Shown: positions 34,864 to 61,877 of the stretch, piece by piece
How the letters are laid out: each line of letters opens with the position of its first letter
How positions within the stretch are numbered: the first letter of the stretch is position 1
Assembly (NCBI GenBank): GCA_951406725.2
Contig: CATOCA020000008.1
Coordinates: 78,072 to 142,071 of the forward strand
Source of the DNA: Octopus vulgaris
Taxonomy: Eukaryota
DNA length: 64,000 bases
Direction: 5' to 3'
The notes under the pieces: generated by a model
Seen by the model: the letters and a program-made list of their open reading frames with translations, nothing else
Told to the model about the DNA's origin: nothing
Databases searched by the model: none
Translations under genes and position numbers: made by a program

Positions 34864-35730
34864 ATACAGTTTGCGTAAGGTATTGGAGGATATACTATTT
34901 TTGGGTCATTGCTGCATTTTTTGCTAACTCTGTATAATCTTTGTTTCAGAAAATAATAATGGCAGACCCTCAGCTTACCCGAGAAATGAAGAGGCATGCT
35001 GTTATTGTGGTTATAAAGGCTGAACATGACGATTTAGAAATATCTTTATTTTTAAAAGTTGTCGGATCTTTTTAAAAGTTGTCTACAAAGTTTGTAAGGA
35101 ACTAGAGACTGAAGATGGAAGCATATCACCAATATCAAAGCGTTTTAAATGCTCTGAAATCATCAGAGCACCCGAATTTATCCAGCAAGTTCAACAGACC
35201 ATTTGTTACAATCCCAGAAAGTCCATGAGGTCAATTGCAAAAGATCTTCATGTGTCAGAAGGAACAGTTAGAAATGTTGTCCACGAAGACATCAGGAAAG
35301 ATCAATTTGTCAGAAAAAGCAAACGAAAATCACTCATCACATCTAAAAGGTTCTTAACAAATTGAAAAATCCAGCAGAAGATTTGATTTGGTTTTTCTCA
35401 AACGAGAAAAACTTCGACCTGATCAAAAAAGTTAACAAAAGAAATGACAGACTTTTATGTGCAGACCCTTCTGAAGTTCCATGTGTTATGCATACAAAAT
35501 TTCCTGCAACTGTCATGGTTTTAGGGGTTGTCAGTAATGAAGGACATATGATGCCTCCTTTCCACAAGGCCTTAAAGTTAACTTTGCCGACTACATTGAG
35601 GCCCTGGAAATAATTGTTAAGTTCTGGATAATATGCGATTTCGCGTTGCACTGGTTCTGCGAGTTGCACTGGATAGAAAGTGTATGCAATGGAAGGCCAT
35701 ATCTGTTTCAGTAAGACTCTGCACTATCAC
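34864..35730 (+). mobile_element. Decayed Tc1/mariner-superfamily (DD37D/maT-like) transposase remnant
   Basis: NPRKSMRSIAKDLHVSEGTV (HTH), WFFSNEKNF, TKFPATVMVLGVVSNEG, GRPYLFQ*DSA. Confidence 0.8.
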
Positions 35731-36208
35731 ACTCAAGCTAAAACTTGAGAACTACACAAGCTAAAACTTGAGAACTACACAACCAATTCCATTCAAATTT
35801 TACACATGCCTTACTTAGGGTCCATGTAGTTTCATGTTCAACTTCTTGCCTAGAGCGAGCTCATAGCAATATCATATCTTCTCCACTATTTCAGTATTAC
35901 GTGTTAAAAGTGAAACAAAAACGTTTCTCTATTTTATGTCAGATACTTTCACTTTAACAATAAAAAAATAATAACAATTGAATTATATGTAGTAAGTAAT
36001 AATTAAAATCAAACTAAAGTAGAATATAATCGTAACAACAAAAGTAAAAATAGCAATTGGTATAAAATTGCATCAATGACTTGAACTTGAATAAGTGGTT
36101 GTACATGAATGGGAATAAATTAAAAATATAATTAGCGTGCAGAAATGGAATAGTCCAGATGGATAATAAAAAATTAAATTAAAGAAAAGACTATTGTCTA
36201 TAAAGTAT

Positions 36209-37875
36209 ACAATGTAGAGAAAAAGAAGATTGAACGGCGGTGTTTTTTGCGCTCTGTAAAATTCGGTTGAAAAGGAAAAAAGAACAAAAAGTGAATTGTG
36301 GTTGTTGCGGAATTGGAACGTCGGTTGGTGCGGTTTCGCGTCGCACTGGTTCTGTGCGTCGCACGTTTTCTGTTCGGGAGGCCGTTTTTCGGTCTGAGGC
36401 GACTATGAGCCGCCTCTACCAAACGGATGAGATGGAAGGGAGAAATTTCTCTGAAAATTCGTCGACATCTGAGGAGGAAAGCACCTACGCAGGTATAACG
36501 AAGAAGTCAACAGAAAAAGAGATAGACCTGGCTAAGTTGACGGACTTCCAGGAGTTCATGAAGGAGGAGGAGAACGGAGAGGTTGAGCTGTTGCCTCTAG
36601 CAGGGCGCGGAGACTGGTTCCATCGTAGAACCATTAAATATAAAGTATTTATGAATGGAGGTAGAAAAATGGAAGTGATTAACATGGAAGCAATTGAAGA
36701 GGCTCTCAAACAGACAGGAGAAGAAATTGTGTACATGACAAAAGGATTACAATGTGGAACCATAACGGTACAATTTAAAAGTGAGAAAGCAGCCAGGAAT
36801 GTAGCAGCCAAGGTGGTGAGTACAGAAAAGATTTACTTGTTCCCCTCGTATTTGAATAGAAGGACCACCAGAATTAGGGTGGTGGGAATACCTCCACACC
36901 TAGAGGGCGAATTAATAACGGCTGCGGTTATCAAAGGAAATGAAGATAAAGTGGACATCCTCCACGCCATTATGAAATATGAGGGCTGGAGAGGCGTAAC
37001 AGTGGAGCTGAACGTACAGGCAGAGACCGAGGTACTGGTGGACCTGACGGAAAGCATCAGACTGGGAGAAGTGATCATGAGAGTGTGGGTGGAGGGCAGG
37101 GCTCCACGTTGTTACAAGTGTGGCCTGAGGGGTCACATAAGAGCCTTCTGCCCTCCCCCCAGGGAAAGAAACGGATTCCGAACCAGAGAGAGAGAAGCAG
37201 AAACCAGAAGAGAAGGAAACAGAGGAAGAGAATACACAGAAATGGAAGGGAGCTGGAAGTAAGAGGAAGAGAAGAATTCATGGAAAAGAAAATAATATGG
37301 AACTCCAATCTACCCCAAACCACCCACACCCTCTGAGTCCCACCCTATCCATGCAGACATTGAACCCACCCGCTCCCCCCAACAAGAAAACAAAAGAAAA
37401 AAAATTAACACATACACAAGAGATTGAAATCGAACCCAGGCCGTACATTTGTACTATGACTGAACAGAAAGAAGTTAAAAGTCTAATGGAAGAGTATAAA
37501 TGGTATGATGTTGGAGAGACTAGGTATGCTGTGATTGAAAAGAAGAACATAGGTGAGTTTATGGGGAGGTGTGAAAGGGAGAATTGGGAGGTGAAAGATA
37601 TAAGAATGAGCGATGAATTCGTGGAAGATATGGATGAGTATTTCGGAGTAAGAATGGATATGGAATTTATTCGTATTGACAAAGAACATTCAAGTGACTA
37701 TGAAAAACAAAGGACAGGTAAGTGATGCTGACGGACGGGGCCGTTGGTATCACTTTCATTTATCATTTTTCGTTTAACAATTCATGTTCATAAAGTTTAA
37801 TTATAATGTTCTATGTCCCCATGTTTTGTAATGTCCCCCTCTTCGTTGGCCCCTTGTGGGTAATAAAAAAAAAAA
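36209..37875 (+). mobile_element. Unit 1: chimera with B-type 5' half and A-type 3' half; frameshifted ORF1
   Basis: 5' matches unit 8 up to ~36980, then matches units 2-4; ORF fragments 36405-37262 and 37297-37725. Confidence 0.85.
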
Positions 37876-38060
37876 TTCGAACAAGTTTTTTCCGGTCGTT
37901 TTTTTTTCGGCTCCTGAAATTCGGCTGAAAAAAGAACAAAAAGCGTTGTTGTTGTTGTGGAAATTCTGAACGGCGTTGACGCGGTTTCGCGTTTCGCTCG
38001 TTCAGCGCGTTACACTTTTTCTGTTTTGGCGGCCGTTTTCGGTCTGTCAGACAGAAGGAA

Positions 38061-39479
38061 ATGGACTACGAGTCTCTAACAGACTTGTCCACGACGGATG
38101 AGGAACTGGAACAGGCAATTGCAGTGAAGCTGATGGAGGAAAAGGCTGGAGTTTTCGAGTCTTTATCAGACTTGTCTACATCTGAGGAGGAGCTAGAAAT
38201 AGCAGTGAGGAAAATGGATCAGAAGCTGGGTTATACCTATGCCGGTGTAACCAAGAAGGCGGAAGAGAAAGGGGTCGACATGGCCAAGTTGCCAAGTTAC
38301 CAGAAATACATGAAAAAGGAAAGCGGTGAGGTGGAACTATCACCGACACCCAGGAGAAAAGAATGGTATGATAAGAGGACCATTGTTTACAGGGTGTTCG
38401 CAAACGAAAGGAAGAGGGTAGAAGTTGTAACCATGGGATGGATAGAGGAAGCCCTGCGAAGAACTGAGGAGGAAATAAATTTTCTGACTCGAGGATCCAA
38501 GTACGGGACCGTAGTTGTGCACTTTAAAAGTGAATCTGTAGCGAGGAAGATGGCAGCGAAGGCGGTGAAGTCGGAAAAGGTAACACTGTTACCTACGTAT
38601 TTAAACAGGAGGATTACACGAATAAGGGTGGAGGGAGTGCCACCAAACGTGGAGGCAGAATGGATTGTGGCGGCTGTGATCAGCGGCCACGAGGACGAAG
38701 TGGATATTCTCCATGCCTCGGTTAAGTCCGAGGGCTGGAGAGGCGTAACAGTGGAGCTGAACGTACAGGCAGAGACCGAGGTACTGGTGGACCTGACGGA
38801 AAGCATCAGACTGGGAGAAGTGATCATGAGAGTGTGGGTGGAGGGCAGGGCTCCACGTTGTTACAAGTGTGGCCTGAGGGGTCACATAAGAGCCTTCTGC
38901 CCTCCCCCAGGGAAAGAAATGGATCCCGAACCAGAGAGAGAGAAGCAGAAACCAGAGGAGAAGGAAACAGAGGAAGAGAATACACAGAAATGGAAGGAAG
39001 CTGGAAGTAAGAGGAAGAGAAGAATATGTGGAAAAAAAGAAAATAATATGGAACTCCAATCTACCCCAAAACCTCCCACACCCTCTGAGTCCCACCCTAT
39101 CCATGCAGACATTGAACCCACCCGCTCCCCCCAACAAGAAAACAAAAGAAAAAAAAAGAATACACACACACAAGAGATTGAAATCGAACCCAGGCCGTAC
39201 ATTTGTACTATGACTGAACAGAGGGAAGTTAAAAGTCTAATGGAAGAGTATAAATGGTATGATGTTGGAGAGACTAGGTATGCTGTGATTGAAAAGAAGA
39301 ACATAGGTGAGTTTATGGGGAGGTGTGAAAGGGAGAATTGGGAGGTGAAAGATATAAGAATGAGCGATGAATTCGTGGAAAATATGAATGAGTATTTCGG
39401 AGTAAGAATGGATATGGAATTTATTCGTATTGGCAAAGAACATTCAAGTGACTATGAAAAACAAAGGACAGGTAAGTGA
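38061..39479 (+). CDS. Unit 2 intact ORF1-like protein (472 aa, A type)
   Basis: ATG to stop; TYAGVTKK, RRM-like GTVVVHF/TRIRVEGVP, CYKCGLRGHIRAFC; homologous to ORF1 of the LINE at 52380. Confidence 0.85.
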   Translation: MDYESLTDLSTTDEELEQAIAVKLMEEKAGVFESLSDLSTSEEELEIAVRKMDQKLGYTYAGVTKKAEEKGVDMAKLPSYQKYMKKESGEVELSPTPRRKEWYDKRTIVYRVFANERKRVEVVTMGWIEEALRRTEEEINFLTRGSKYGTVVVHFKSESVARKMAAKAVKSEKVTLLPTYLNRRITRIRVEGVPPNVEAEWIVAAVISGHEDEVDILHASVKSEGWRGVTVELNVQAETEVLVDLTESIRLGEVIMRVWVEGRAPRCYKCGLRGHIRAFCPPPGKEMDPEPEREKQKPEEKETEEENTQKWKEAGSKRKRRICGKKENNMELQSTPKPPTPSESHPIHADIEPTRSPQQENKRKKKNTHTQEIEIEPRPYICTMTEQREVKSLMEEYKWYDVGETRYAVIEKKNIGEFMGRCERENWEVKDIRMSDEFVENMNEYFGVRMDMEFIRIGKEHSSDYEKQRTGK

Positions 39480-39695
39480 TGCTGACGGACGGGGCCGTTG
39501 GTATCGCTTTCATTTTATCATTTTTTTCGTTTAACAATACATGTTCATAAAGTTTAATTATAATGTTCTATGTCCCCATGTCTTTTGTTGTCCCCCTCTG
39601 TGTCGCCCCTTAGTGGGTAATAAAAAATCAGCTCGTTCAGCGCGTTACACTTTTTCTGTTTTGGCGGCCGTTTTCGGTCTGTCAGACAGAAGGAA

Positions 39696-41056
39696 ATGGA
39701 CAACCCCTACCTGATGGGAGATACGGCTGCAGTTTTTGAGTCTTTAACAGACTTGTCTACGTCTGAGGAGGAGCTAGAAATAGCAGTGAGGAAAATGGAT
39801 CAGAAGCTGGGTTATACCTATGCCGGTGTAACCAAGAAGGCGGAAGAGAAAGGGGTCGACATGGCCAAGTTGCCAAGTTACCAGAAATACATGAAAAAGG
39901 AAAGCGGTGAGGTGGAACTATCACCGACACCCAGGAGAAAAGAATGGTATGATAAGAGGACCATTGTTTACAGGGTGTGCGCAAACGAAAGGAAGAGGGT
40001 AGAAGTTGTATCCATGGAATGGATAGAGGAAGCCCTGCGAAGAACTGAGGAGGAAATAAATTTTCTGACTCGAGGATCCAAGTACGGGACCGTAGTTGTG
40101 CACTTTAAAAGTGAATCTGCAGCGAGGAAGATGGCAGCGAAGGCGGTGAAGTCGGAAAAGGTAACACTGTTACCTACGTATTTAAACAGGAGGATTACAC
40201 GAATAAGGGTGGAGGGAGTGCCACCAAACGTGGAGGCAGAATGGATTGTGGCGGCTGTGATCAGCGGCCACGAGGACGAAGTGGATATTCTCCATGCCTC
40301 GGTTAAGTCCGAGGGCTGGAGAGGCGTAACAGTGGAGCTGAACGTACAGGCAGAGACCGAGGTACTGGTGGACCTGACGGAAAGCATCAGACTGGGAGAA
40401 GTGATCATGAGAGTGTGGGTGGAGGGCAGGGCTCCACGTTGTTACAAGTGTGGCCTGAGGGGTCACATAAGAGCCTTCTGCCCTCCCCCAGGGAAAGAAA
40501 TGGATACCGAACCAGAGAGAGAGAAGCAGAAACCAGAGGAGAAGGAAACAGAGGAAGAGAATACACAGAAATGGAAGGAAGCTGGAAGTAAGAGGAAGAG
40601 AAGAATACGTGGAAAAGAAAATAATATGGAACTCCAATCCACCCCAAAACCACCCACGCCCTCTGAGTCCCACCCTATCCATGCAGACATTGAACCCACC
40701 CGCTCCCCCCAACAAGAAAACAAAAGAAAAAAAAGAATACATACACACAAGAGATTGAAATCGAACCCAGGCCGTACATTTGTACTATGACTGAACAGAA
40801 AGAAGTTAAAAGTCTAATGGAAGAGTATAAATGGTATGATGTTGGAGAGACTAGGTATGCTGTGATTGAAAAGAAGAACATAGGTGAGTTTATGGGGAGG
40901 TGTGAAAGGGAGAATTGGGAGGTGAAAGATATAAGAATGAGCGATGAATTCGTGGAAAATATGGATGAGTATTTCGGAGTAAGAATGGATATGGAATTTA
41001 TTCGTATTGGCAAAGAACATTCAAGTGACTATGAAAAACAAAGGACAAGTAAGTGA
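39696..41056 (+). pseudogene. Unit 3 ORF1 (A type), frameshift in a poly-A run near 40730
   Basis: ORFs 39696-40790 and 40787-41056 together match unit 2. Confidence 0.85.
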
Positions 41057-41372
41057 TGCTGACGGACGGGGCCGTTGGTATCGCTTTCATTTTATCATTT
41101 TTTTCGTTTAACAATTCATGTTCATAAAGTTTAATTATAATGTTCTATGTCCCCATGTTTTGTTATGTCCGCCATTCTTCGTAGCCCCTTAGTGGGTAAT
41201 AAAGAAATACGCGGTTTTTTCGGCTCCTGAAAATTCGGTAAAAAAGAACAAAAAGCGTTGTTGTTGTTGTGGAAATTCTGAACGGCGTTGACGCGGTTTC
41301 GCGTTTCGCTCGTTCAGCGCGTTACACTTTTTCTGTTTTGGCGGCCGTTTTCGGTCTGTCAGACAGAAGGAG

Positions 41373-42788
41373 ATGGACTATGAGTCTCTAACAGACTTGT
41401 CCACGACAGATGAGGAACTGGAACAGGCAATTGCAGTGAAGCTGATGGAGGAAAAGGCTGGAGTTTTTGAGTCTTTATCAGACTTGCCTATGTCTGAGAA
41501 GGAGCTAGAAATGGCAGCAAGGAAATTGGAAGACAAGCTGAGTTATACCTATGCCGGTGTAACCAAGAAGGCGGAAGAGAAAGGGGTCGACATGGCCAAG
41601 TTGCCAAGTTACCAGAAATACATGAAAAAGGAAAGCGGTGAGGTGGAACTATCACCGACACCCAGGAGAAAAGAATGGTATGATAAGAGGACCATTGTTT
41701 ACAGGGTGTGCGCAAACGAAAGGAAGAGGGTAGAAGTTGTATCCATGGAATGGATAGAGGAAGCCCTGCGAAGAACTGAGGAGGAAATAAATTTTCTGAC
41801 TCGAGGATCCAAGTACGGGACCGTAGTTGTGCACTTTAAAAGTGAATCTGCAGCGAGGAAGATGGCAGCGAAGGCGGTGAAGTCGGAAAAGGTAACACTG
41901 TTACCTACGTATTTAAACAGGAGGATTACACGAATAAGGGTGGAGGGAGTGCCACCAAACGTGGAGGCAGAATGGATTGTGGCGGCTGTGATCAGCGGCC
42001 ACGAGGACGAAGTGGATATTCTCCATGCCTCGGTTAAGTCCGAGGGCTGGAGAGGCGTAACAGTGGAGCTGAACGTACAGGCAGAGACCGAGGTACTGGT
42101 GGACCTGACGGAAAGCATCAGACTGGGAGAAGTGATCATGAGAGTGTGGGTGGAGGGCAGGGCTCCACGTTGTTACAAGTGTGGCCTGAGGGGTCACATA
42201 AGAGCCTTCTGCCCTCCCCCAGGGAAAGAAACGGATTCCGAACCAGAGAGAGAGAAGCAGAAACCAGAGGAGAAGGAAACAGAGGAAGAGAATACACAGA
42301 AATGGAAGGAAGCTGGAAGTAAGAGGAAGAGAAGAATTCATGGAAAAGAAAATAATATGGAACTCCAATCTACCCCAAAACCACCCACACCCTCTGAGTC
42401 CCACCCTATCCATGCAGACATTGAACCCACCCGCTCCCCCCCAACAAGAAAACAAAAGAAAAAAAAGAATACACATACACAAGAGATTGAAATCGAACCC
42501 AGGCCGTACATTTGTACTATGACTGAACAGAAAGAAGTTAAAAGTCTAATGGAAGAGTATAAATGGTATGATGTTGGAGAGACTAGGTATGCTGTGATTG
42601 AAAAGAAGAACATAGGTGAGTTTATGGGGAGGTGTGAAAGGGAGAATTGGGAGGTGAAAGATATAAGAATGAGCGATGAATTCGTGGAAAATATGGATGA
42701 GTATTTCGGAGTAAGAATGGATATGGAATTTATTCGTATTGACAAAGAACATTCAAGTGACTATGAAAAACAAAGGACAGGTAAGTGA
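41373..42788 (+). CDS. Unit 4 intact ORF1-like protein (471 aa, A type)
   Basis: ATG to stop, near-identical to unit 2. Confidence 0.85.
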   Translation: MDYESLTDLSTTDEELEQAIAVKLMEEKAGVFESLSDLPMSEKELEMAARKLEDKLSYTYAGVTKKAEEKGVDMAKLPSYQKYMKKESGEVELSPTPRRKEWYDKRTIVYRVCANERKRVEVVSMEWIEEALRRTEEEINFLTRGSKYGTVVVHFKSESAARKMAAKAVKSEKVTLLPTYLNRRITRIRVEGVPPNVEAEWIVAAVISGHEDEVDILHASVKSEGWRGVTVELNVQAETEVLVDLTESIRLGEVIMRVWVEGRAPRCYKCGLRGHIRAFCPPPGKETDSEPEREKQKPEEKETEEENTQKWKEAGSKRKRRIHGKENNMELQSTPKPPTPSESHPIHADIEPTRSPPTRKQKKKKNTHTQEIEIEPRPYICTMTEQKEVKSLMEEYKWYDVGETRYAVIEKKNIGEFMGRCERENWEVKDIRMSDEFVENMDEYFGVRMDMEFIRIDKEHSSDYEKQRTGK

Positions 42789-43118
42789 TGCTGACGGACG
42801 GGGCCGTTGGTATCACTTTCATTTTATCATTTTTCGTTTAACAATTCATGTTCATAAAGTTTAATTATAATGTTCTATGTCCCCATGTTTTGTAATGTCC
42901 CCCTCTTCGTTGGCCCCTTGTGGGTAATAAAAAATCACGTGTTTTTTTCGGCTCTGTGTTTTTTGCTCTCTGTGAAATTCGGTAAAAAGAAAAAAGAACA
43001 AAAAGTGAATGGTTGTTGGTGTAAAATTTTGAACATAGTTGATGAGGTTTCGCGTCTCACTGGTTCTGCGCGTTACACTTTTTCGGTTCGGGAGGCCGTT
43101 TCTCGGCCGGAGGCGACT

Positions 43119-44446
43119 ATGAGCCGCCTCCATCAAGCGGAGGAGATGGAAGGGAGAATTTACTCTGAAATTTCGACGGAAGTATCGACATCTGAGGAGG
43201 AGTTGGCGGTGAAAAAGATGGAAGGCACCTACGCAGGTGTAACGAAGAAGTCAACGGAAAAGAGATAGACTTGGCTAAGTTGGCGGGCCTCCAGGAATTT
43301 GTGAAGGAGGACGAGAACGGTGAAGTTGAGCTGCTGCATCCAGTAGGGTGCGGAGACTGGTTCCATCGTAGAACCATTAAATATAAAGTATTTATGAATG
43401 GAGGTAGAAAGATGGAAGTAATTAACATGGAAGCAATTGAAGAGGCTCTTAAGCAGACGGGAGAGGAAATTGTGTACATGACGAAAGGATTACAATACGG
43501 AACCATAACGGTGCAATTTAAAAGTGAAAAAGCAGCCAGGAATGTAGCAGCCAAGGTGGTGAGTACAGAAAAGATTTACTTGTTACCCTCGTATCTGAAT
43601 AGGCGGACAACTAGAATTAGGTGGAGGGAATACCTCCACACCTAGAGGGCGAATTAATAACGGCTGCGGTTATAAAAGGAAATGAAGATAAAGTGGACAT
43701 CCTCCACGCCATTATGAAGTATGAAGGCGTGAGAGGTGCCACACTAGTTATGAACGTTCAAACGGAGGCGGATGTTATAGAGAAGATTACGGACAGCATA
43801 AAGACTGGAAATATTATTATGAGAGTGTGGGTGGAGGGTAGGGCGCCCAGGTGCTACAAGTGTGGCCAAAGGGGTCACATAAGAGCCTACTGCCCTCCCC
43901 CACCAAAGGAAAAAGAAAAGGAAAGCGTTGAGGAAGCCTCAGGAGAGGAAGAAAATAAACAGAAACAAACAGAGAAGAAAACGACAGAAGAAGAGGAGAT
44001 GCAACAAGAGTGGAAAGAAGCGGGAACAAAGAGAAAAAGAAGGAAAAAGAAAAAACTGTGCGAAGCCCCAACCCACCCCGACACCACCCATACCCTTGGA
44101 GTCCCATCCTTCCCCTGCAAACAGTAATTCCACCCACTCCCCGCCTACAAGAAGAATAAAAACAGACACACAGAGCAAAGAAAGTCCCAAGACCCATTTT
44201 TTATTTGTTATACATGGGAGAGACGTACAAAACGTTAAAAAACTGGTGTTAACCAAGTGGTACGAACACGAAGATTGGAGCTACACGGCTGTGGATGGTG
44301 ATGATACGGGTATATTGGCGACAAGGTTAGAGGAAGAGGGTGTGTGTTGGAAGTCAGTGGAAATGAAAGATGAATGGATAGAGAGGGCTAAAAGAAAAAC
44401 GAATGTTGTGATGGTTAAAACAGGAATACTAATTGAAAATGGGTGA
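43119..44446 (+). pseudogene. Unit 5 ORF1 (B type), several frameshifts
   Basis: Fragments at 43271, 43621 and 43928 are co-linear with unit 6. Confidence 0.85.
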
Positions 44447-44775
44447 AGAAGGACAGATAAGTGATGCTGGCGGATGGGGCCGTCGGTATCGCTCTCATAT
44501 ATCATTTTCATATTCCATTTTGCTCATATATATGTAATTGTGATGTTCCATGTCCCCATGTCTTGTAATGTCCCCCTCTTCGTTGGCCCCTTGTGGGTAA
44601 TAAAAAATCACGTGTTTTTTTGCTCTCTGTGAAATTCGGTAAAAAGAAAAAAGAACAAAAAGTGAATGGTTGTTGTTGTAAAATTTTGAACATAGTTGAT
44701 GCGGTTTCGCGTCTCACTGGTTCTGCGCGTTACACTTTTTCGGTTCGGGAGGCCGTTTCTCGGCCGGAGGCGACT

Positions 44776-46104
44776 ATGAGCCGCCTCCATCAAGCGGAGG
44801 AGATGGAAGGGAGAATTTACTCTGAAATTTCGACGGAAGTATCGACATCTGAGGAGGAGTTGGCGGTGAAAAAGATGGAAGGCACCTACGCAGGTGTAAC
44901 GAAGAAGTCAACGGAAAGAGAGATAGACTTGGCTAAGTTGGCGGGCCTCCAGGAGTTTGTGAAGGAGGACGAGAACGGTGAAGTCGAGCTGCTGCATCCA
45001 GTAGGGCGCGGAGACTGGTTCCATCGTAGAACCATTAAATATAAAGTATTTATGAATGGAGGTAGAAAGATGGAAGTAATCAACATGGAAGCAATTGAAG
45101 AGGCTCTCAAGCAGACAGGAGAGGAAATTGTGTACATGACAAAAGGATTACAATACGGAACGATAACGGTGCAATTTAAAAGCGAAAAAGCAGCCAGGAA
45201 TGTAGCAGCCAAGGTGGTGAGTACAGAAAAGATTTACTTGTTACCCTCGTATCTGAATAGGCGGACAACTAGAATTAGGGTGGAGGGAATACCTCCACAC
45301 CTAGAGGGCGAATTAATAACGGCTGCGGTTATAAAAGGAAATGAAGATAAAGTGGACATCCTCCACGCCATTATGAAGTATGAAGGCGTGAGAGGTGCCA
45401 CACTAGTTATGAACGTTCAAGCGGAGGCGGATGTTATAGAGAGGATTACGGACAGCATAAAAACTGGAAATATTATTATGAGAGTGTGGGTGGAGGGTAG
45501 GGCGCCCAGGTGCTACAAGTGTGGCCAAAGGGGTCACATAAGAGCCTACTGCCCTCCCCCACCAAAGGAAAAAGAAAAGGAAAGCGTTGAGGAAGCCTCG
45601 GGAGAGGAAGAAAATAAACAGAAACAAACAGAGAAGGAAACGACAGAAGAAGAGGAGATGCAACAAGAGTGGAAAGAAGCGGGAACAAAGAGAAAAAGAA
45701 GGAAAAAGAAAAACTGTGCGAAGCCCCAACCCACCCCGACACCACCCATACCCTTGGAGTCCCATCCTTCCCCTGCAAACAGTAATTCCACCCACTCCCC
45801 GCCTACAAGAAGAATAAAAACAGACACACAGAGCAAAGAAAGTCCCAAGACCCATTTTTTATTTGTTATACATAGGAAAGACATACAAAACGTTAAAAAA
45901 CTGGTGTTAACCAAGTGGTACGAACACGAAGATTGGAGCTACACGGTTGTGGACAGTGATGATACGGGTATATTGGCGACAAGGTTAGAGGAAGAGGGTG
46001 TGTGTTGGAAGTCAGTGAAAATGAAAGATGAATGGATAGAGAGGGCTAAAAGAAAAACGAATGTTGTGATAGGTGAAACAGGAATACAAATTGGAAATGG
46101 GTGA
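44776..46104 (+). CDS. Unit 6 intact ORF1-like protein (442 aa from MSRLHQ, B type)
   Basis: Open frame with TYAGVTKK, GTITVQF, CYKCGQRGHIRAYC; C-terminal domain differs from A type. Confidence 0.85.
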   Translation: MSRLHQAEEMEGRIYSEISTEVSTSEEELAVKKMEGTYAGVTKKSTEREIDLAKLAGLQEFVKEDENGEVELLHPVGRGDWFHRRTIKYKVFMNGGRKMEVINMEAIEEALKQTGEEIVYMTKGLQYGTITVQFKSEKAARNVAAKVVSTEKIYLLPSYLNRRTTRIRVEGIPPHLEGELITAAVIKGNEDKVDILHAIMKYEGVRGATLVMNVQAEADVIERITDSIKTGNIIMRVWVEGRAPRCYKCGQRGHIRAYCPPPPKEKEKESVEEASGEEENKQKQTEKETTEEEEMQQEWKEAGTKRKRRKKKNCAKPQPTPTPPIPLESHPSPANSNSTHSPPTRRIKTDTQSKESPKTHFLFVIHRKDIQNVKKLVLTKWYEHEDWSYTVVDSDDTGILATRLEEEGVCWKSVKMKDEWIERAKRKTNVVIGETGIQIGNG

Positions 46105-46266
46105 AGAAGGACAGACAAGTGATGCTGGCGGATGGGGCCGTCGGTATCACTCTCATATATCATTTTTCATATTCCATTTTGCTCATATATATGTAATTGT
46201 GATGTTCCATGTCCCCATGTCTTGTAATGTCCCCCTCTTCGTTGGCCCCTTGTGGGTAATAAAAAA

Positions 46267-47373
46267 TCACGTGTTTTTTTCGGCTCCTGAAATTCGGTAA
46301 AAAAGAACAAAAAGCGTTGTTGTTGTTGTGGAAATTCTGAACGGCGTTGACGCGGTTTCGCGTTTCGCTCGTTCAGCGCGTTACACTTTTTCTGTTTTGG
46401 CGGCCGTTCTCGGTCTGTCGGACGGAAGGAGGTGGACTATGAGTCTCTGACAGACTTGTCCACGACAGATGAGGAGCTGGAACGGGCAATTGCAGTGAGG
46501 CTGATGGAAGAAAGGGCTGGAATTTTCGAGTCTTTATCAGACCTGCCTGCGTCTGAGAAGGAGCTAGAAATGGCAGCAAGGAATTTGGAGGGCCGGGCTC
46601 CACGTTGTTACAAGTGTGGCCTGAGGGGTCACATAAGAGCCTTCTGCCCTCCCCCAGGGAAAGAAATGGATTCCGAACCAGAGAGAGAGAAGCAGAAACC
46701 AGAGGAGAAGGAAACAGAGGAAGAGAATACACAGAAATGGAAGGAAGCTGGAAGTAAGAGGAAGAGAAGAATGCGTGGAAAAGAAAATAATATGGAACAC
46801 CAATCTACCCCAAAACCACCCACACCCTCTGAGTCCCACCCTATCCATGCAGACATTGAACCCACCCGCTCCCCCCAACAAGAAAACAAAAGAAAAAAAA
46901 AGAATACACACACAGACAAGAGATTGAAGTCGATATCAGGCCGTACATTTGTACTATGACTGAACAGAAAGAAGTTAAATGTCTAATGGAAGAGTATAAA
47001 TGGTATGAAGTCGGTGAGACTAGGTATGCTGTGATTGAAAAGAAGAACATAGGTGAGTTTATGGTGAGGTGTGAAAGGGAGAATTGGGAGGTGAAAGATA
47101 TAAGAATGAGCGATGAATTCGTGGAAAATATGGATGAGTATTTCGGAGTAAGAATGGATATGGAATTTATTCGTATTGGCAAAGAACATTCAAGGGACGA
47201 TGAAAAACAAAGGACAGGTAAGTGATGCTGACGGATGGGGCCGTTGGTATCACTTTCATTTTCTCATTTTTTCGTTTAACAATTCATTTTCCATAAAGTT
47301 TAATTATAAATGTTTTATGTCCCCATGTCTTTTGGTGTCCACTTCTGTGTCGCCCCTAGTGGGTAATAAAGAA
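46267..47373 (+). mobile_element. Unit 7: A type, internal deletion of the RRM region, A-to-G changes including ATG to GTG
   Basis: Jumps from MAARNL to EGRAPRC near 46587; cluster of A-to-G versus unit 4 at 46420-46550. Confidence 0.85.
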
Positions 47374-49071
47374 ATACAATGTAGAGAAAAAGAAGATTGA
47401 ACGGCGGTGTTTTTTGCGCTCTGTAAAATTCGGTTGAAAAGGAAAAAAGAACAAAAAGTGAATTGTGGTTGTTGCGGAATTGGAACGTCGGTTGGTGCGG
47501 TTTCGCGTCGCACTGGTTCTGTGCGTCGCACGTTTTCTGTTCGGGAGGCCGTTTTTCGGTCTGAGGCGACTATGAGCCGCCTCTACCAAACGGATGAGAT
47601 GGAAGGAGAAATTTCTCTGAAAATTCGTCGACATCTGAGGAGGAGTTGGCGGTGAAAAAAATGGAAAGCACCTACGCAGGTATAACGAAGAAGTCAACAG
47701 AAAAAGAGATAGACCTGGCTAAGTTGACGGACTTCCAGGAGTTCATGAAGGAGGAGGAGAACGGAGAGGTTGAGCTGTTGCCTCTAGCAGGGCGCGGAGA
47801 CTGGTTCCATCGTAGAACCATTAAATATAAAGTATTTATGAATGGAGGTAGAAAAATGGAAGTGATTAACATGGAAGCAATTGAAGAGGCTCTCAAACAG
47901 ACAGGAGAAGAAATTGTGTACATGACAAAAGGATTACAATGTGGAACCATAACGGTACAATTTAAAAGTGAGAAAGCAGCCAGGAATGTAGCAGCCAAGG
48001 TGGTGAGTACAGAAAATATTTACTTGTTCCCCTCGTATTTGAATAGAAGGACCACCAGAATTAGGGTGGTGGGAATACCTCCACACCTAGAGGGCGAATT
48101 AATAACGGCTGCGGTTATCAAAGGAAATGAAGATAAAGTGGACATCCTCCACGCCATTATGAAATATGAAGGCGTGAGAGGTGCCACACTAGAAATGAAC
48201 ATACAGACGGAGACGGAAGTTATAGATAAGCTTACGGACAGTATACAAACTGGGAATATTATTATGAGAGTGTGGGTGGAGGGTAGGGCGCCCAGGTGCT
48301 ACAAGTGTGGCCAGAGGGGTCACATAAGAGCCTACTGCCCTCCCCCACCAAAGGAAAAGGAAATCGTTGCGGAAGCCCCAAAAGAGGACGCCCCAAAAGA
48401 GGAAGAAACTAAAGAGAAACAAACAGAAAAGGAAACGACAGAAGAAGAGGAGATGCAACAAGAGTGGGAAGAAGGCAGAAAAAAGAAAAAGAAAAACTGT
48501 GCGAAGCCCCAACCCACCCCAACACCACCCACACCCTCTGAATCCCACCCCTCCCCTGCAGACAGTGAACCCACCCGCTCCCCTCCAACAAGAAAACAAA
48601 AAAAAAAATAACACAGACAGACAAGAGACTGAAAGCGAACCCAGGCCGAACATTTGTATTATGACAGAACAGAAAGAGGTTAAAAGGGTAATGGAAGGGT
48701 ATACATGGTGCGATTCAGGTGTGACCAGGTGTGCAGTGATTGAAAAGGAGAGAATAGATGAGTTTATGAGAAGGTGCGAAAGGGAGAATTGGGAGGTGGA
48801 AGAGATGAGTCTGAGTGATGAATCCGTGAAAAATATGGAGAATCGTTTTGAAGTGAGAATGGAGAATATCGGTTTTATTATTGGAAATTGGAGTGACGGC
48901 GAAAACCAAAGGACAGGTAAGTGATGCTGGCGGAGGGGGCCGTTGGCATCGCTTTCATATTATCATTTTTTCATGTAACAATTCATCCTTCATAAATTTA
49001 ATTATAATGTTCTATGTCCCCATGTCTTGTAATGTCCCCCTCTTCGTTGGCCCCTTGTGGGTAATAAAGAA
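47374..49071 (+). mobile_element. Unit 8: B-type N-terminus with A-related C-terminal domain; frameshifted
   Basis: ORFs 47646-48611 and 48367-48924. Confidence 0.85.
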
Positions 49072-50497
49072 TCAAGATTCGAACAAGGTCGGTCGTTTTT
49101 TTGCGCTCTGTGGAATTCGGCTGAAAAGGGGAAGGGAACAGAGGGTGTTGTTGTTGTTGTGGAAATTTTGAGCGTCGTTGATGCGATTTCGCGTTGCACT
49201 GGTTCTGCGAGTTGCACTTTTTCTGTTCGGGCGGCCGTTTTCGGTCTGTCGGACGGAGGGAGGTGGACTTTGGTTCCCTGTCGGACTTGTCTGCGTCTGG
49301 GGAGGAGCTGGAACGGGCAGTGGGAGGGATGGATCGAGGGCTGGGTTGTACCTGTGCCGGTGTGACCAGGAGGGCGGAGGAGAGGGGGGTGGACTTGGCC
49401 GGGCTGCCGGGTTGCCAGAAGTGTGTGAGGGGGGATGGCGGTGGGGTCCGGGAGGGTGGCTCTTTTGCCTACATGTCTAGATGGAGGGATTGCACGAGTG
49501 GGGGTGGGGGGGGTGCCACCGAGCGTTGAGGCCGAGTGGATTGTGGCGGCTGTGATTGGCGGCCGCGAGGTGGAGGTGGATGTTCTCCATGCCTCGGTTG
49601 GGACCGAGGGCTGGAGAGGCGTAGCAGTGGAGCTGAGCGTGCAGGCGGGGAGCGAGGTGCTGGTGGACCTGGCGGAGGGCATCGGGTTGGGAGACGTGAT
49701 CATGAGAGTGTGGGTGGAGGGCAGAGCTCCACGTTGTTACAAGTGTGGCCTGAGGGGTCACATAAGAGCCTTCTGCCCTCCCCCAGTGAAAGAAATGGAT
49801 TCCGAACCGCAGAGAGGGAGGCCGGAGGAGAGGGAGACGGTGGAGGAGGAGAATTTACAGAAATGGAAAGAAGCTGGGAATAAGAGGAAGAGGAGAATAC
49901 GAGGAAAAGAAAATAACATAGAACACTAATCCACCCCAACACCACCCACACCCTCTGAGACCCACCCTATCCCTGCAGACAGTGAACCCACCCGCTCCCC
50001 TCCAACAAGAAAACAAAAGAAAAAAATAATACAGACAGACAAGAGTTTGAAATCGAACCCAGGCCGAACATTTATATTATGACTGAACAGAAAGAAGTGA
50101 AAAGGGTAATGGAAGAGTATAAATGGTATGAAATAGGTGAGACCAGATATACAGTGCTGGAAAAGAAGAATATAGATGAGTTTGTGTTGAGGTGTGAAAG
50201 GGAGAATTGGGAGGTGAAAGATACAAGAAAGAGCGATGAATTCGTGGAAAATATGGAGGAGTATTTCGGAGTAAGAATGGATATGGATGGTCTTCGTATT
50301 GGGAATGAACATTCAGGTGACAGTGAAAACAAAAGGACAGGTAAGTGATGCTGGCGGATGGGGCCGTTAGCATCGCTTTCATATTATCATTTTTCATTTT
50401 AATATTCATTTGCTCATAAATTTAATCATATTGTTCTATGTCCCCCATGTTTTGTTATGTAAGCCAATCTTCGTAGCCCCTGGTGGGTAATAAAGAA
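49072..50497 (+). mobile_element. Unit 9: A-related (C subtype), A-to-G hypermutated 5' half, internal deletion
   Basis: G-rich rewrite of the unit 2/3/10 sequence over ~49130-49690; 3' half near-identical to unit 10. Confidence 0.88.
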
Positions 50498-52151
50498 AGA
50501 AAGGTCGGTCGTGTTTTTTTGCGCTCTGTAAAATTCGGTTAAGGGGGAAAAAGGAACAAAAAGTGTTGTTGTTGTGGAAATTTTGAACGTCGTTGATGCG
50601 GTTTCGCGTTGCACGGGTTCTGCGAGTTACACTTTTTCTGTTCGGGCGGCCGTTTTCGGTCTGTCAGACAGAAGGAGATTGACTGTAATTCCTTATCAGA
50701 CTTGTCTGCGTCTGAGGAGAAGCTGGAGCGGGCAGTGGGAATGATGGATCGAAGGCTGGGTTGTTCCTGTGCCGGTGTAAGCAGGAGGGCGGAGGAGAGG
50801 CGGGTGGACTTGGCCGGGCTGCCGAGTTGCCGGAAATATATGAAGGGGGATGGCGGTGAGGTCGAACTGGCGCCGACACCTAAGAGAGGGGAATGGTGTG
50901 ATAGAAGGACCATTGTGTGCAGGGTGGTCGCAAACGAAAGGAAGAAGATAGAAGTTGTAAACATGGAGTGGATAGAGGAGGCGCTGAGAAGAACGGAGGA
51001 GGAAGTGAATTTTCTGACTCGAGGATAAAAGTATGGTACTGTAGTGGTACAGTTTAAAAGTGAGAATGCAGCAAGGAAGATAGCGGCGAAGGCGGTGAAA
51101 TCCGAAAAGGTAACACTTTTGCCTACGTATTTAAACAGAAAAATTACACGAGTAAGGGTCGAGGGAGTGCCACCAAACGTTGAGGCCGAGTGGATTGTGG
51201 CGGCTGTGATCAGCGGCCACGAGGAGGAAGTGGATATTCTCCATGCCTCGGTTAAGACCGAGGGCTGGAGAGGCGTAACAGTGGAACTGAACGTGCGGGC
51301 AGAGAACGAAGTACTGGTGGACCTGGCGGAAAGCATCAGATTGGGAGACGTGATCATGAGAGTGTGGGTGGAGGGCAGAGCTCCACGTTGTTACAAGTGT
51401 GGCCTGAGGGGTCACATAAGAGCCTTCTGCCCTCCCCCAGTGAAAGAAATGGATTCCGAACCGCAGAGAGGGAGGCGGAGGCCGGAGGAGAGGGAGACGG
51501 TGGAGGAGGAGAATTCACAGAAATGGAAAGAAGCTGGGAATAAGAGGAAGAGGAGAATACGAGGAAAAGAAAATAACATAGAACACCAATCCACCCCAAC
51601 ACCACCCACACCCTCTGAGACCCACCCTATCCCAGCAGACAGTGAGCCCACCCGCTCCCCTCCAACAAGAAAACAAAAGAAAAAAAATAATACAGACAGA
51701 CAAGAGTTTGAAATCGAACCCAGGCCGAGCATTTATATTATGACTGAACAGAAAGAAGTGAAAAGGGTAATGGAAGAGTATAAATGGTATGAAATAGGTG
51801 AGACCAGATATACAGTGCTGGAAAAGAAGAATATAGATGAGTTTGTGTTGAGGTGTGAAAGGGAGAATTGGGAGGTGAAAGATACAAGAATGAGCGATGA
51901 ATTCGTGGAAAATATGGAGGAGTATTTCGGAGTAAGAATGGATATGGATGGTCTTCGTATTGGGAATGAACATTCAGGTGACAGTGAAAACAAAAGGACA
52001 GGTAAGTGGTGCTAGCGGATGGGGCCGTTGGCACCGCTTTCATATATCATTTTAATAATTCATTTTTACTCATATCTATGTAATTGTGATGTTCTATGTC
52101 CCCAATGTTTGTAACGTCCCCTCTATGTAGCCCCTAGTGGGTAATAAAGAA
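50498..52151 (+). mobile_element. Unit 10: C subtype, partially A-to-G mutated, premature stop at ~51026
   Basis: ORFs 50609-51028 and 51044-52015. Confidence 0.85.
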
Positions 52152-52379
52152 TTAACTTGGAGGAAAGCTATTTGCGTTTATTGTAAGTTGATATATTTTT
52201 GCTGTCGTATTATTATCTCTGTTATTCTCTACTGTTTGTCCACCTGTTTTTGTCTTTTGCTGTCTAACTGTCGAAGTCAGCCTTCGCGCGAGGACTTCGC
52301 GTTGGTGTTCCCCCCTCCGTGGGGGAAAAATAACATTTATCTTGAAGATACCAAGGGCTTGTGAAGCCAACTGTTCGGG

Positions 52380-53740
52380 ATGGAGTCCCCCATCTCTTCT
52401 TCGCCCGTGACGAGTGAAGAGGAGTTTCCGGCGATGTCGCCAAGGAAAAAAGAGGCGGTGTCGCCAAAGAAAAAAGAGGCAATGTCGCCAAAGAAAAAGG
52501 AAAACCAAGCACCAGCACCAGCTCCAGCGAAAAAATTCTCTGAAGTGGCCGGTAAAAGGATCAAGAAAATAAACGTGGAGGATTTGGAAAAATATGCAGA
52601 CTGTGTAAAAAAAGAGGGCACGGAAGTGACAGTGGTCACAAACGTCCAAAAATACGATGAAATAGAAAAAAAAAGGATAATATATAAGACATATAACACA
52701 ACGACAAAAATGATTAAAAAAATTGAAGAAAAAAAATAGAGAACTGTCTAAAACCTTTAATGGATAAAATAACGTACATTAACAGAGGAAAGAGATACGG
52801 CACAGTGGAGGTGCGTTTTACTACTGAGGAGACTGCAAAAAAACTATCTATGGAGCCGATTAAAGCGGAGAACATTGTTCTCCTCCCCTTATATAGAGGG
52901 AAAAGAACGTTGAAAATTTCGATGAACAACATACCACCAGAGGCAGATGCCGAATGTCTGGTGGCAGCAGTGATGGTAGGCCTGGAGGAAAAAATAAACA
53001 TCCTCCAGGCCACAGTGGAGAAAGAGGAATTTTGGAAAGGGCAGAAAATAGTAATAGCCATTCAGGCGGAAGTGCAAACACTGGAGGAAATACCAGAAAC
53101 ATTAAAAATTAGTGAAGACGAGAGAATAACAGTTTTCGTGGAGGGCAGAAAGCCGAGGTGTTTCGGCTGCGGCAAGAAGGGTCATGTAAGGGCGGAATGC
53201 CAACCCCAACCCAAACCGCAGGAAGTACCTCAGCCAGGTGAAAAAGAAGATAAAGTGTCACCAGAAGCAGCGCCGGGCGGCCCAGAAGGGACGACTGAAG
53301 GTGTGGAGGTGACAAAGGCAGCAGAACCAGTGGCGGAGGAAAATAAGAGCGAGGAAAAGATAAATGAGGAGGGGTGGGCAAAAATCACCAAAAAAAAAAA
53401 AAGAAAAACGGAAACCACCCCTCCCAGAGTGAACTTAAAAAAGAAAAGGGAGTCAATGAAGTCGTATATGGCCGTTAAGGCATCAAATAACAGACTCGGA
53501 AACGTGTTGGTAGCTATGGCCAAAGTGGAGAAAATAGAGAAAAAAAACGACTTTGTAGTTTACAGAATAGGCCGGAAGGATTACGGGCGGATAAAGTCCG
53601 AATTCTTCCATGACGTAGGCCCACTTAGAATGGATGTGACATCCCCACATATATTCGAGGGCCTACGTCAGACTCCCCCACGAGGCCCTGAAAAAGAATT
53701 AAACAAAGAAGAAAAGGAGAAAACCGAACCACTGATATAA
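52380..53740 (+). pseudogene. LINE ORF1 (CCHC knuckle), frameshift in poly-A near 52735
   Basis: GKRYGTVEVRF, VFVEGRKPRCFGCGKKGHVRAEC. Confidence 0.85.
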
Positions 53741-53749
53741 AGGTAAGTA

Positions 53750-55570
53750 ATGGATTGCATTTATGTTGGTTGTTTGAATGTGCGCGGCCTGGGAGCAGGC
53801 TGGAAGCAAGGTCGCTTCCTGCATGATATCAGGTCGCGTAATTTAGATGTTATTGTTGCTACAGAAACCCGGTTAGAGGGGCCAAGAGGTCTACTCCCGC
53901 TGGCAAGGGTGGGGCACTGGTCCATTTAGACCAATCTAAAGCATTTGATAGTGTCGACCATCGTTACCTGGTATCTGCCCTGGCACAGTTCGGGCTGAGC
54001 CTTGGCTTCCTCAGGTGGATTATCCAAATTTATGATAACATCGACTCGGTAGTTCGGGTGAACGGCTTCTTGTCGAAGCCGTTCAAAATCAAGCGCTCGG
54101 TTCGTCAAGGGTGTCCGCTCTCCCCGCTTTTGTACGTGATGGCTCTTGAGCCATTACTGCGAAAACTGAGCGGCATCCCGAGACAGCCAGGTAGTGGAAA
54201 ATCAGTGTCAGCGTACGCGGATGACATCACCATCATCGTGACCGAAATGGACCACCTATGTAAAGTAGGCAAGGCCATAGAGGTTTACGAGACGGTGACA
54301 GGAGCAAAAGTTAATCGCGAAAAGTCAGTCGGCTTGCAACTCGGCACCTGGAGAGGCAAGTCGATGCCTCCTAACAGCGTCGTGAGACGTTGGACGGAGG
54401 GTCCGATTAAATTGCTAGGGGTCTGGTTCGGTCCAGACCTCCAAATAGAGAAGAATTGGGGCGAGGTAACGAGCAGGGTGGCTGCAGTAACCAAGACCTG
54501 GTCTTGGCGGTGGCTATGCCTGAAAGGGAGGGCGGAGGTGGCCAATGTGTTTATCGCATCGGTTATCACCTTCCGCCTTTCCGTCGTTCCTTGCCCTGAT
54601 TCGTGGTTGATCAAGTTGGAAAGACAGCTCTTCTACTTCTTGTGGAAGGGCGGGAAACCACTTGTGAAACGCTCTACTTGCTGTCAACAACCGTTAAAGG
54701 GTGGGCTAGGGATGCCTTGGCTGATGATGTGCAGACATGCGCTGAGGTTAAGACATCTGTGGCTCTACCTGGATGGTGAACGGGTGTGGTCTCCGCTAGC
54801 AAAACTGATGTTTCCCAAGTTCACTAGTTTCGGTGGATGGGAAACCTGGCTGAATCGTAGATCGAAACTTGGTACTTGGTACACGGAGTGTCGCAAGGCT
54901 CTCCTGCTATTTCGTCGCTCGGGCAACGCCTGCGGTGGGGGTTCCACCACATTCTTCTATAGAGGGTTGGTAGAGGCGGAATGTGAAGATACCTTGGGGA
55001 AACCCTAGGTCTCGACGATAATCAGCTGGCCAGTCTGTTCCGACGTACGTTCAAGCCGAGGACACTGGACAACTTCCAGAAGTCTCTGGCATGGCAATGC
55101 TACAGAGGAGCTCTACCTGTTCGGGATAAACTCGCAAGGCACGGTGGCCAAGACAGTCCGATATGTCCAAGATGCGGGCGGGATAGGGAAACCGTCCCGC
55201 ACGCTATTGTTCATTGTCCGGACGTGTCTGAGGTGTGGGTTTATGCCGAACAGCTGTTGTCAAGTACACGAAGAGTACAGCTGTCGACTGAGTCGATTAC
55301 AAAAATTGACCCACCGGATTTCCTCGCGAATGAAGGTAAGTTTCGTTTTCTCATTGTAGTAGCAATTGCGAAAGAGGTGATATGGAAGACGAGAATGAAA
55401 GGTCTACAGTCAGGCAAGTTCATCTCCGGCCCTGGTTTGATGAATTATTTCATCTTTCACCTGAAAAGGAAGATAGGGCTGGAGAGAATATGCCTGAGTG
55501 TATGAAGAACGATGGAAAGATGTAGCACGAAAGTTGCGAGTGAATGATACAACATAAATGTAAAACCAAA
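53750..55570 (+). pseudogene. LINE ORF2 remnant (APE start + RT C-half + terminal Cys/His motif)
   Basis: Same motifs as unit 11; out-of-frame deletion junction near 53900; stop at 55008. Confidence 0.85.
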
Positions 55571-56273
55571 CGTAACCAAAAGTATCAGTGGGTAGGCGGG
55601 GCTCGTGGAGTCCGAGCTAAACCCGCACCCACTCCACCCGTAATGTCTTCCGGTCTGTTCCATCATTCGATTTCTGTCTAATTTTTGTAATTTCATGTAA
55701 ATTTTTAAATTCGTTTTATTGTAAAAACCCATTCGTGTGTCTGACCCCATCATCAGATTGTATTGTCCCATCTATGTTCGCCCCTTGTGGGTAATAATAA
55801 AACAACATGGAGGAAAGCACCTTCGAAAAGTGTCTTGATGCGACTATGAAAGGTATCTAATCAGAGGCGGTAAATTCGCCACAATAGAAGCAAGGTTCGA
55901 GTCAACGGAGCGTGCAAGTACTCGACTCGAACTTGCAAAGTGGAAATATTTTATTATTACCTTTATATCTGGGGCGTAGGACGTCCCGGAAAAAAATTTT
56001 AAATGCCCCCCCCCAAAAAAAAAAGTAGAGGTAGGCTGGATTGTAGCCACACTTCTATACAAGATACACTTGATCGAAATTACAAGAGACGGGCTAACAA
56101 TTCCAGTCTGTTATATATTTTCAGTATTGTTATCACTAGCGATATCAAGATATAACTTTGTATTTTGTATTTTATGTGTAGATGTATATATATAGATGTA
56201 CATGTAATATGTACACATATATATACACATGCACTAGCACTTTGAGCCGGCAACGACGGGTCTTTAATGCTAG

Positions 56274-56305
<32 letters not shown>

Positions 56306-59330: not shown

Positions 59331-59751
59331 AATATATACAACTCCCGAATGGGCTGGTGAATTTCTATTTTGGATATATTTGGTGTACTTAATTGTGCTC
59401 ATGATTTAGTGTATGCTTCTTCCATGGATATAAGTATTTTATTTATTTCATTTATCACTGACGAAGAAAAGGTTCTTATGAATTAACTCTAAAATCGGGT
59501 CCGATATGATAATAACGAAATTTTTTAGAAATTTCTGTCGGTTCTCTTCGAGACACGTGCTTATAGTGATGAATTATATGGTTATGGACGATGTGTCTAG
59601 TTTCGGCATATTTGGCATTAGAAATATTTTTTTCTTTTGCACTTGTTTATAAGTTGTTTACCAATTTAACCTTTAAAGGTATTTTTTAATATGCTGGCCA
59701 TTGATAAATCTTTTTTCGAAAACTTTTATCCTATATTATATATATATAAAT

Positions 59752-61522: not shown

Positions 61523-61877
61523 CTTTATATATATATATAAAGTTGAAATCTATACAAAAACAAAAGATAAAGACAGGTGTAGGAGCAACAAGCAAGTGTA
61601 TTAGTTTGACGCTTGGGAAAAATGGAAAAGGGAATGAAAAAAAAACGTGTTGAGTTTAGTGGTCCAGCATGGCGAATGATTGGAAAAAAACAGGTTGAAA
61701 GAAAGGGAGATAATAATATAAAAAGGTGAATGGAAGGGAGCTGATAATAGTGTTAGTGATCCCAACACGAGAAGGTGCGTGTGCGTGCATGTGAGAATGG
61801 TGTATGTGAGTGTGCAAGTGTATATAAATCATAAAGTTGGCTTATTCGCAATTTACAACCGAAACACAGAAGTATAT

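Follow-up and report, generated by a model that had tools for sequence, protein, structure and literature searches.

A-to-G tracts in a young retroposon family of Octopus vulgaris and their likely origin in ADAR-edited RNA

A retroposon array, its LINE partner and their target repeat

The window, a stretch of 64,000 nucleotides of Octopus vulgaris DNA that was analysed as a whole, holds a head-to-tail array of retroposon units and, directly after it, a LINE (39% identity between its ORF1 and the unit ORF); array and LINE lie between the arms of a host repeat (Table 1). The unit ORF is gag-like, with a weak CCHC match and no reverse transcriptase (RT); a homolog search returned no match at E<=0.001, and in the Atlas only clusters of CCHC proteins were found (0.90-0.93), which we treat as a lead only. 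In most units the ORF ends at the same place on a perfect splice-donor word (AG GTAAGT, 37714-37725), and this word also occurs in the ORF1 region of the LINE near 53742. A search with an unedited stretch of the unit gave 466 candidates in the 2.8-Gb genome, and the 40 that were scored were 99-100% identical and spread over many contigs; the units are a young, genome-wide family of ORF1-only, non-autonomous retroposons. Further head-to-tail arrays of ten or more units lie on C14 (37.74 Mb), C17 (67.75 Mb), C1 (142.95 Mb) and C2 (138.78 Mb), and arrays were apparently built by insertion at the element's own 5' end. Many array units are subtype chimeras, unit 1 carrying the 5' half of unit 8. 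Fragments of another LINE RT family were found in the window on both strands (81-1911, 14284-14726 and 59732-61524).

Table 1. Positions of the array, its partner and the edited stretches within the window
Feature	Position	Strand	Remarks
37-bp patch, same sequence as 49182-49218 of edited unit 9	35634..35670	+	includes the private G>A at 49186; flanked by two copies of a 7-bp word
Left arm of host repeat (~1.1 kb, Helitron-like ends)	35761..36224	+	insertion target of array and LINE; unedited, 0 A>G at 158 A columns
Head-to-tail array, ten units of 1.1-1.76 kb	36200..52148	+	gag-like ORF1 with CCHC knuckle, no RT, precise 3' end, no poly(A) tail
Short edited tract, unit 7	46420..46549	+	9/40 A>G
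Unit 9, copy of ORF1-only non-autonomous retroposon	49069..50494	+	start codon GTG; deletion breaks the frame
Main hyper-edited tract, unit 9	49112..49686	+	86/166 A>G, 4 other changes, 5' G avoided; alleles in runs X1, X2 and X5
239-bp deletion junction, unit 9 vs unit 10	49437..49446	+	8-nt microhomology; edited bases on both sides; spanned by X1 contig
Second tract, unit 9	49809..49848	+	9 A>G; unit 10 has the identical tract; no other match genome-wide
Unit 10, edited	50495..52148	+	41/128 A>G at 50543-50919; 12/29 at 51463-51508
Internally deleted, probably Tx1-like LINE, putative autonomous partner	52169..55803	+	RT and zf-RVT present, endonuclease mostly lost; shares its 3' end with the units
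Right arm of host repeat	55804..56275	+	ends in hairpin and CTAG; unedited

The LINE is bordered by a 15-bp target duplication with one mismatch (52154-52168 and 55804-55818), and a deletion in place near 53900 has removed the start of its RT region together with most of the endonuclease. Its intact relatives (L119, L121-L123 and L125) encode an ORF2 of 1132 aa with an apurinic-type endonuclease, RT and zf-RVT. Judged by match names and domains, this partner appears to be Tx1-like, two of the six named hits among 120 listed being 'Transposon TX1 149 kDa protein' at 29-31% identity. The same host word follows the LINE at 12 of 12 loci, and empty sites exist, nine empty copies of the host repeat matching the target pattern (copies of the repeat include L109-L116). 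Helitrons begin with TC after an A and end in a hairpin followed by CTAG before a T; the host repeat has a Helitron-like 5' end in the empty copies shown, and hairpin plus CTAG in five of seven. Units and LINE both prefer one site in this repeat with Helitron-like ends.

Solo units inserted in other DNA bear target-site duplications of 16-21 bp at seven of the 29 copies listed, and none were found at the copies inside the host repeat among those listed. Several solo units (L044, L047 and L053) sit in a second common target repeat, which we take to be possibly a SINE. The 5' ends of the units are variable and often truncated, the 3' end is fixed, and many units are chimeric. No poly(A) or simple-repeat tail was found, the units ending 3-6 nt after AATAAA in nearly all copies shown and the partner LINE likewise. 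An earlier note on this DNA had deduced an RNA intermediate for the units from their editing; as the duplications, the variable 5' ends and the 3' end, which is also that of an intact endonuclease-RT LINE, lead to it independently, the RNA intermediate does not rest on editing alone.

A-to-G tracts in unit 9 and across the family

Because unit 10 is itself edited, unit 9 was scored against a yardstick composed of the commonest letter, column by column, in ten unedited siblings from other loci, which placed the four changes other than A>G of its main tract in 577 columns. Compared directly over 49110-49690, unit 9 differs from unit 10 by 89 substitutions (66 A>G, eight G>A, three T>C, the rest other) and from units 2, 3 and 4 by 73-80 A>G. 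The clustered, overwhelmingly A-to-G differences described in the earlier note were thus recovered, along with the replacement of the start ATG by GTG and the positions of its four example strings; of the limits it gave, the end near 49690 stood (last change at 49686) and the start at 49130 did not, the first change lying at 49112. The 110 columns 3' of the main tract carry no change and the final 609 columns of the unit no A>G. Apparent divergence from the siblings is ~15% across the tract and <1% once A>G is set aside. G>A, the sense-strand change of the APOBEC type, occurs once in the tract, which leaves it outside the definition of APOBEC DNA editing.

Whether an A was changed depended on its neighbours. 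By 5' neighbour, the changed As of unit 9 numbered 23/27 after T, 40/56 after A, 10/22 after C and 9/51 after G (Fisher p 8e-10), and by 3' neighbour 31/45 before G vs 23/57 before A (p 0.013). The retained As, said to follow a G in many cases, did so at 54 of 81 positions, and the check proposed for this unit, of substitution types and context, therefore returned both the A>G excess and the depletion of 5' G.

Unit 9 had been read as the product of one event ending at 49690. It proved instead to be a mosaic, and one of at least 20 edited copies. The motif at its deletion junction also matches undeleted sequence, as checked in other copies. Private to units 9 and 10 are the nine-site tract and one G>A, and a whole-genome probe for a parent copy of this tract elsewhere matched these two units only. 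In the 5' tracts, 26 of the 31 edits of unit 10 are also present in unit 9 (odds ratio 10.6, within the range of unrelated edited pairs); unit 9 lacks five of them, as well as ten private changes other than A>G that unit 10 carries there (50520-50925, at several-fold the rate of the remaining unit). Each 5' tract has edits absent from the other, and the 3' UTR types differ. On this comparison, simple descent of unit 9 from unit 10 RNA is possible but not supported, the overlap being no greater than between unrelated edited copies. The small common tract fits best with conversion or a template switch, which we consider its likely source, and a second editing round on daughter RNA is a possible one. 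Since unit 9 is a mosaic, carrying a deletion as well as a small tract in common with unit 10, the abrupt stop near 49690 may be a recombination edge and not necessarily the end of a duplex. Compared with unit 4, unit 7 is missing ~600 bp of its ORF at 46584, just after its short edited tract.

For the family as a whole, we aligned 169 copies of at least 800 nt, dropping shorter pieces, and scored each against its nearest neighbours, picked on transversions and gaps only and blind to transitions; a tract was called at six or more changes of the same type with a spacing of <=60 nt. A>G tracts were found in 24 copies (20 clean), G>A tracts in four, and T>C and C>T tracts in none, in a set that is enriched for edited copies, some loci having been found with a unit 9 query and four fetched as probe hits. 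A smaller set of 148 copies gave 22 A>G, three G>A, one T>C and no C>T. Three of the four G>A tracts share columns and are probably subtype differences. A 35-nt probe of the whole genome gave 137 matches with A/G free, 129 exact matches and 129 with T/C free, that is, eight additional matches vs none (p 0.025), and the four probe-only A>G copies that were fetched all carry tracts. With all As present at 129 of the 137 matches, and the sibling comparison agreeing, A is the ancestral state, as had been proposed. Because eight of 137 probe copies are edited and about half of the clean edited copies have their tract over the probe site, the edited share of the family is roughly 6-12%; among array units found with an unedited query it was 6/104, a lower bound.

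Tracts are 30-1330 nt long and peak in the 5' half, with no clean tract over the last 150 nt. They stop within the element, sparing adjoining host DNA and adjoining units, and in the host arms that flank heavily edited copies 0-2 of ~150 A columns are A>G. A copy on C6 carries 178 A>G and 23 other changes over 1650 columns, amounting to 61 missense vs 25 silent codons among 261 scored. Each heavy tract is private, none being found at a second locus, and the sites changed in independent copies largely coincide (odds ratios mostly 2-20). A seemingly inherited tract in copies on C5, C8 and C20 (8/8 sites in common) vanished once more kin of the subtype were added, and there is no evidence in it of the spread of an edited copy. 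The autonomous LINE copies examined, most of them picked for >=97% identity, carry no A>G tract.

Origin of the tracts

ADARs favour 5' neighbours in the order U>A>C>G. Among 692 changed As pooled across copies (including a few impure tracts later judged to be subtype differences, and counting sites common to units 9 and 10 twice), the 5' neighbour was G in 10%, A in 54% and T in 24%, and the 3' neighbour G in 43.5%; the changed rate was 0.57, 0.47, 0.28 and 0.09 after T, A, C and G, respectively (p 2e-70), and was 0.44 before G, which is favoured, against 0.23 before A, the lowest (p 2e-14). This context is close at both neighbours to that reported for 87,574 squid ADAR sites (5' G 8%, A 49%, T 29%; 3' G 44%; PMC4384741), and 5'-G depletion at ADAR sites is described in PMC8586724. 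It does not match at the 3' side a report on hyper-edited reads of invertebrates, octopus included, in which A rather than G was preferred downstream and G stood at 20-25% of sites (PMC5625713), a count that was not composition-normalised. The units are G-rich, but the discrepancy remains. The premise of an active coleoid ADAR holds for the host, whose genome has deaminase matches at four loci, one exon matching a protein named Octopus vulgaris ADAR2 with 100% identity.

Neither the unit nor the array was found to contain a long inverted repeat, the best self-inverted match in an unedited unit being 34 nt at 76%, and an intramolecular hairpin was rejected as the editing substrate, the longest perfect helix being only 15 bp. 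Pairing in trans is proposed because of this lack of a long inverted repeat. At C15:65.71-65.74 Mb (L090, L091 and L146), units in opposite orientation lie ~22 kb apart with LINE copies between them, an arrangement that would be a possible source of antisense or fold-back RNA.

The G alleles were also sought in four public runs aligned to 48950-49950, all consisting of contigs whose kind was guessed ('DNA?' or '?'). Of these, X1, X2 and X5 each come from a different sample and a different study and bear two organism labels between them; one of the runs may be the source of the assembly. X1 provided a 289-bp contig at single-copy depth with no difference over 49225-49513, spanning the 239-bp deletion; X5 a 158-bp contig with no difference; and X2 a 162-bp contig that spans the unit 8/9 junction and differs at one position. 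Among the matches listed for X3, none was a long contig covering the tract. A second X2 contig, of 244 bp and with seven differences, carries the edited allele but matches only as far as 49448, the deletion junction, its remaining 21 letters not fitting; this hints that the deletion is absent from the sample and, if so, arose after the insertion. The G alleles are therefore present in the sequence data of more than one sample, and the confirmation that the earlier note had sought in raw DNA reads was obtained in part, from assembled contigs of three runs, guessed to be DNA. The 37-bp patch upstream of the array, 13.5 kb from its source in unit 9 and within two mismatches of no other among 156 units compared, looks like a templated repair insertion.

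We place a probability of about 0.9 on the explanation that ADAR hyper-edits the RNA of the element in the germline, likely while paired with antisense RNA, and that the LINE RT writes inosine as G. RTs insert C opposite inosine. The unit family ends like, and shares its target site with, an intact endonuclease-RT LINE. Stretches of 30-1300 nt of its RNA would become paired, likely in trans with antisense transcripts of some of the many copies, and ADAR would deaminate 15-55% of the As in the paired stretch, as the signature suggests. Given the target duplications and the common 3' ends, the LINE RT would then begin target-primed reverse transcription on the unedited 3' end, in many cases inserting the new copy at the 5' end of a unit already present and thereby extending an array. 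The edited copy would be inherited, and the middle of unit 9 would later have come to share the small tract of unit 10. As only sense RNA is copied, sense-strand edits alone would be recorded, and an enzyme reading RNA context would be expected to hit the same sites in independent copies. For unit 9, the proposal that it was reverse-transcribed from an ADAR-hyper-edited RNA is supported by the excess of A>G, by the sparing of As that follow a G and by the occurrence of the G alleles in independent contigs. Reading of inosine as G in reverse transcription is documented in PMC5224506.

Deamination of DNA at or after integration, for instance of the DNA strand in an RNA:DNA hybrid by ADAR, would require no edited RNA to be copied and should show the same neighbour preference, ADAR being able to deaminate the DNA strand of hybrids in vitro. 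Hybrids of sense RNA with cDNA or template would, however, leave T>C on the sense strand, and such tracts are absent from all 169 copies; moreover, the tracts halt inside the element, sparing host DNA and neighbouring units, and hypoxanthine in DNA is normally repaired, so that a density of 50% would be hard to reach. We regard this account as very improbable. Slightly weaker still is polymerase error, either in second-strand synthesis with a skewed dNTP pool or in patch synthesis of the polymerase eta type at WA motifs, which would explain single-stranded, single-event changes and the favoured 5' T and A. Polymerase eta works at WA without preference for a 3' G and makes transversions alongside, whereas here G is the favoured and A the least favoured 3' neighbour, CA sites are changed at 28% and transversions are near background (four other changes per 86). 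Slippage would favour As with a 5' G, yet these are the most spared, and the recurrence of the same sites in independent copies is what an enzyme reading RNA context would produce.

An assembly artefact has in its favour that ADAR-edited RNA, whose reads might have entered the assembly, is very abundant in octopus (PMC5625713) and that clustered sequencing errors of the same type are known (PMC2873906). Since the alleles recur in contigs of three runs from three studies, at single-copy depth and with one contig crossing the unit 8/9 junction and one the deletion, such an origin is unlikely; the edited allele was also copied into the 37-bp patch, and at least 20 copies carry differing tracts, which together make an artefact barely credible. 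The same low standing goes to the idea that G is ancestral and the other copies underwent G>A, or that unit 9 is a diverged G-rich subtype. Real subtype differences did mimic short tracts, in the C5, C8 and C20 copies, but most probe matches are all-A, unit 9 is nearly identical to its siblings apart from A>G, each heavy tract is private, and the G form loses the start codon and has 25 missense vs 16 silent codons in the part scored; for unit 9 itself, the sibling comparison rules this reading out. The observation is accordingly confirmed and family-wide, and its interpretation as ADAR editing is supported, with the exception of the claim about defence.

Precedents, defence and heritable editing

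The closest precedents are A>G-hypermutated avian retroviruses and the APOBEC footprints in vertebrate LTR elements. ADAR-linked A-to-G hypermutation was described in RAV-1 and ALV (Felder 1994; Hajjar and Linial 1995, as cited in PMC8586724), and there too the A>G changes are clustered and edited RNA was fixed as DNA by RT; those are infectious retroviruses, whereas the octopus elements are non-LTR, germline-inherited and edited in ~6-12% of family copies. APOBEC 'DNA editing' was reported in vertebrate LTR retroelements and in none of the 19 invertebrate genomes screened, mismatch types other than those derived from C-to-U being called very rare (PMC4866542). Such footprints resemble the octopus tracts in being heritable deaminase tracts with strand bias, a motif and hundreds of sites per copy, but they arise by C-to-U on cDNA, that is, sense G>A, in LTR elements only, whereas the octopus changes are A>G of RNA origin and affect a non-LTR element in an invertebrate. 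In coleoids, RNA of repeats is reported to be hyper-edited A-to-I (PMC5625713; PMC9068888), with the same enzyme class, repeat targets and 5'-G depletion; that editing is described in RNA only, in contrast to the changes in DNA seen here, whose downstream preference departs from PMC5625713 and agrees with PMC4384741. ADAR1 is reported to restrict human LINE-1 mainly independently of editing, with no editing in >2.5 kb of L1 RNA (PMC5224506); ADAR meets LINE RNA in both systems, and in octopus the edited RNA was retrotransposed. Target-specific LINEs of the Tx1 clade and non-autonomous derivatives are known (PMC4640811), and L1-Tx1 is reported as recently active in O. vulgaris (PMC13282606). 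The partner LINE is like these in its endonuclease-RT ORF2, CCHC ORF1 and preferred multicopy target, and would differ in that this target is a Helitron-like repeat plus the element's own 5' end and that an ORF1-only derivative forms arrays reaching ten units or more. At title and abstract level, in a literature whose subscription papers were poorly covered, we found no description of ADAR-edited non-LTR copies fixed in a genome; the supplements of PMC4866542 may bear on this novelty.

A base change from A to G cannot create a stop codon. This weighs against part of the suggestion that editing acts as a heritable anti-retroelement mutagen, which is half supported: the edits are heritable and their missense load is heavy, but RNAs that had been edited nevertheless integrated, and long ORFs are not rarer in edited copies. 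Loss of the ORF was rejected as a sign of defence, since long ORFs are equally common in the two groups (5/17 edited vs 43/133 unedited copies). That none of the heavy tracts recurred at another locus fits sterilisation of edited copies, and also fits most copies leaving no offspring. Transposon defence was proposed as an unexplored role of coleoid editing in PMC9068888, and genome sequences by themselves now allow a test of it, namely whether copies that carry edits have given rise to further copies.

Edits to RNA are normally regarded as not passed on, yet in this mobile family they have left a footprint in chromosomal DNA, common to different samples and present in a measurable share of the copies, which implies that RNA undergoing retrotransposition is exposed to the action of ADAR in cells contributing to the germline. 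The tracts are records of the editing of single molecules, over 30-1300 nt, from a rarely sampled tissue, and they can inflate the apparent ages of cephalopod repeats, as the divergence of unit 9 with and without A>G illustrates. A broader possibility, which we put forward tentatively and would not at present favour, is that ADAR is a routine germline mutagen of retrotransposing RNA in octopus, a considerable fraction of newly made non-LTR insertions in different families arriving rewritten and edited copies being re-transcribed, re-edited and re-inserted, as from unit 10 to unit 9. If so, RNA editing would be a regular source of heritable DNA change, and would have left a datable record of the specificity of germline ADAR.
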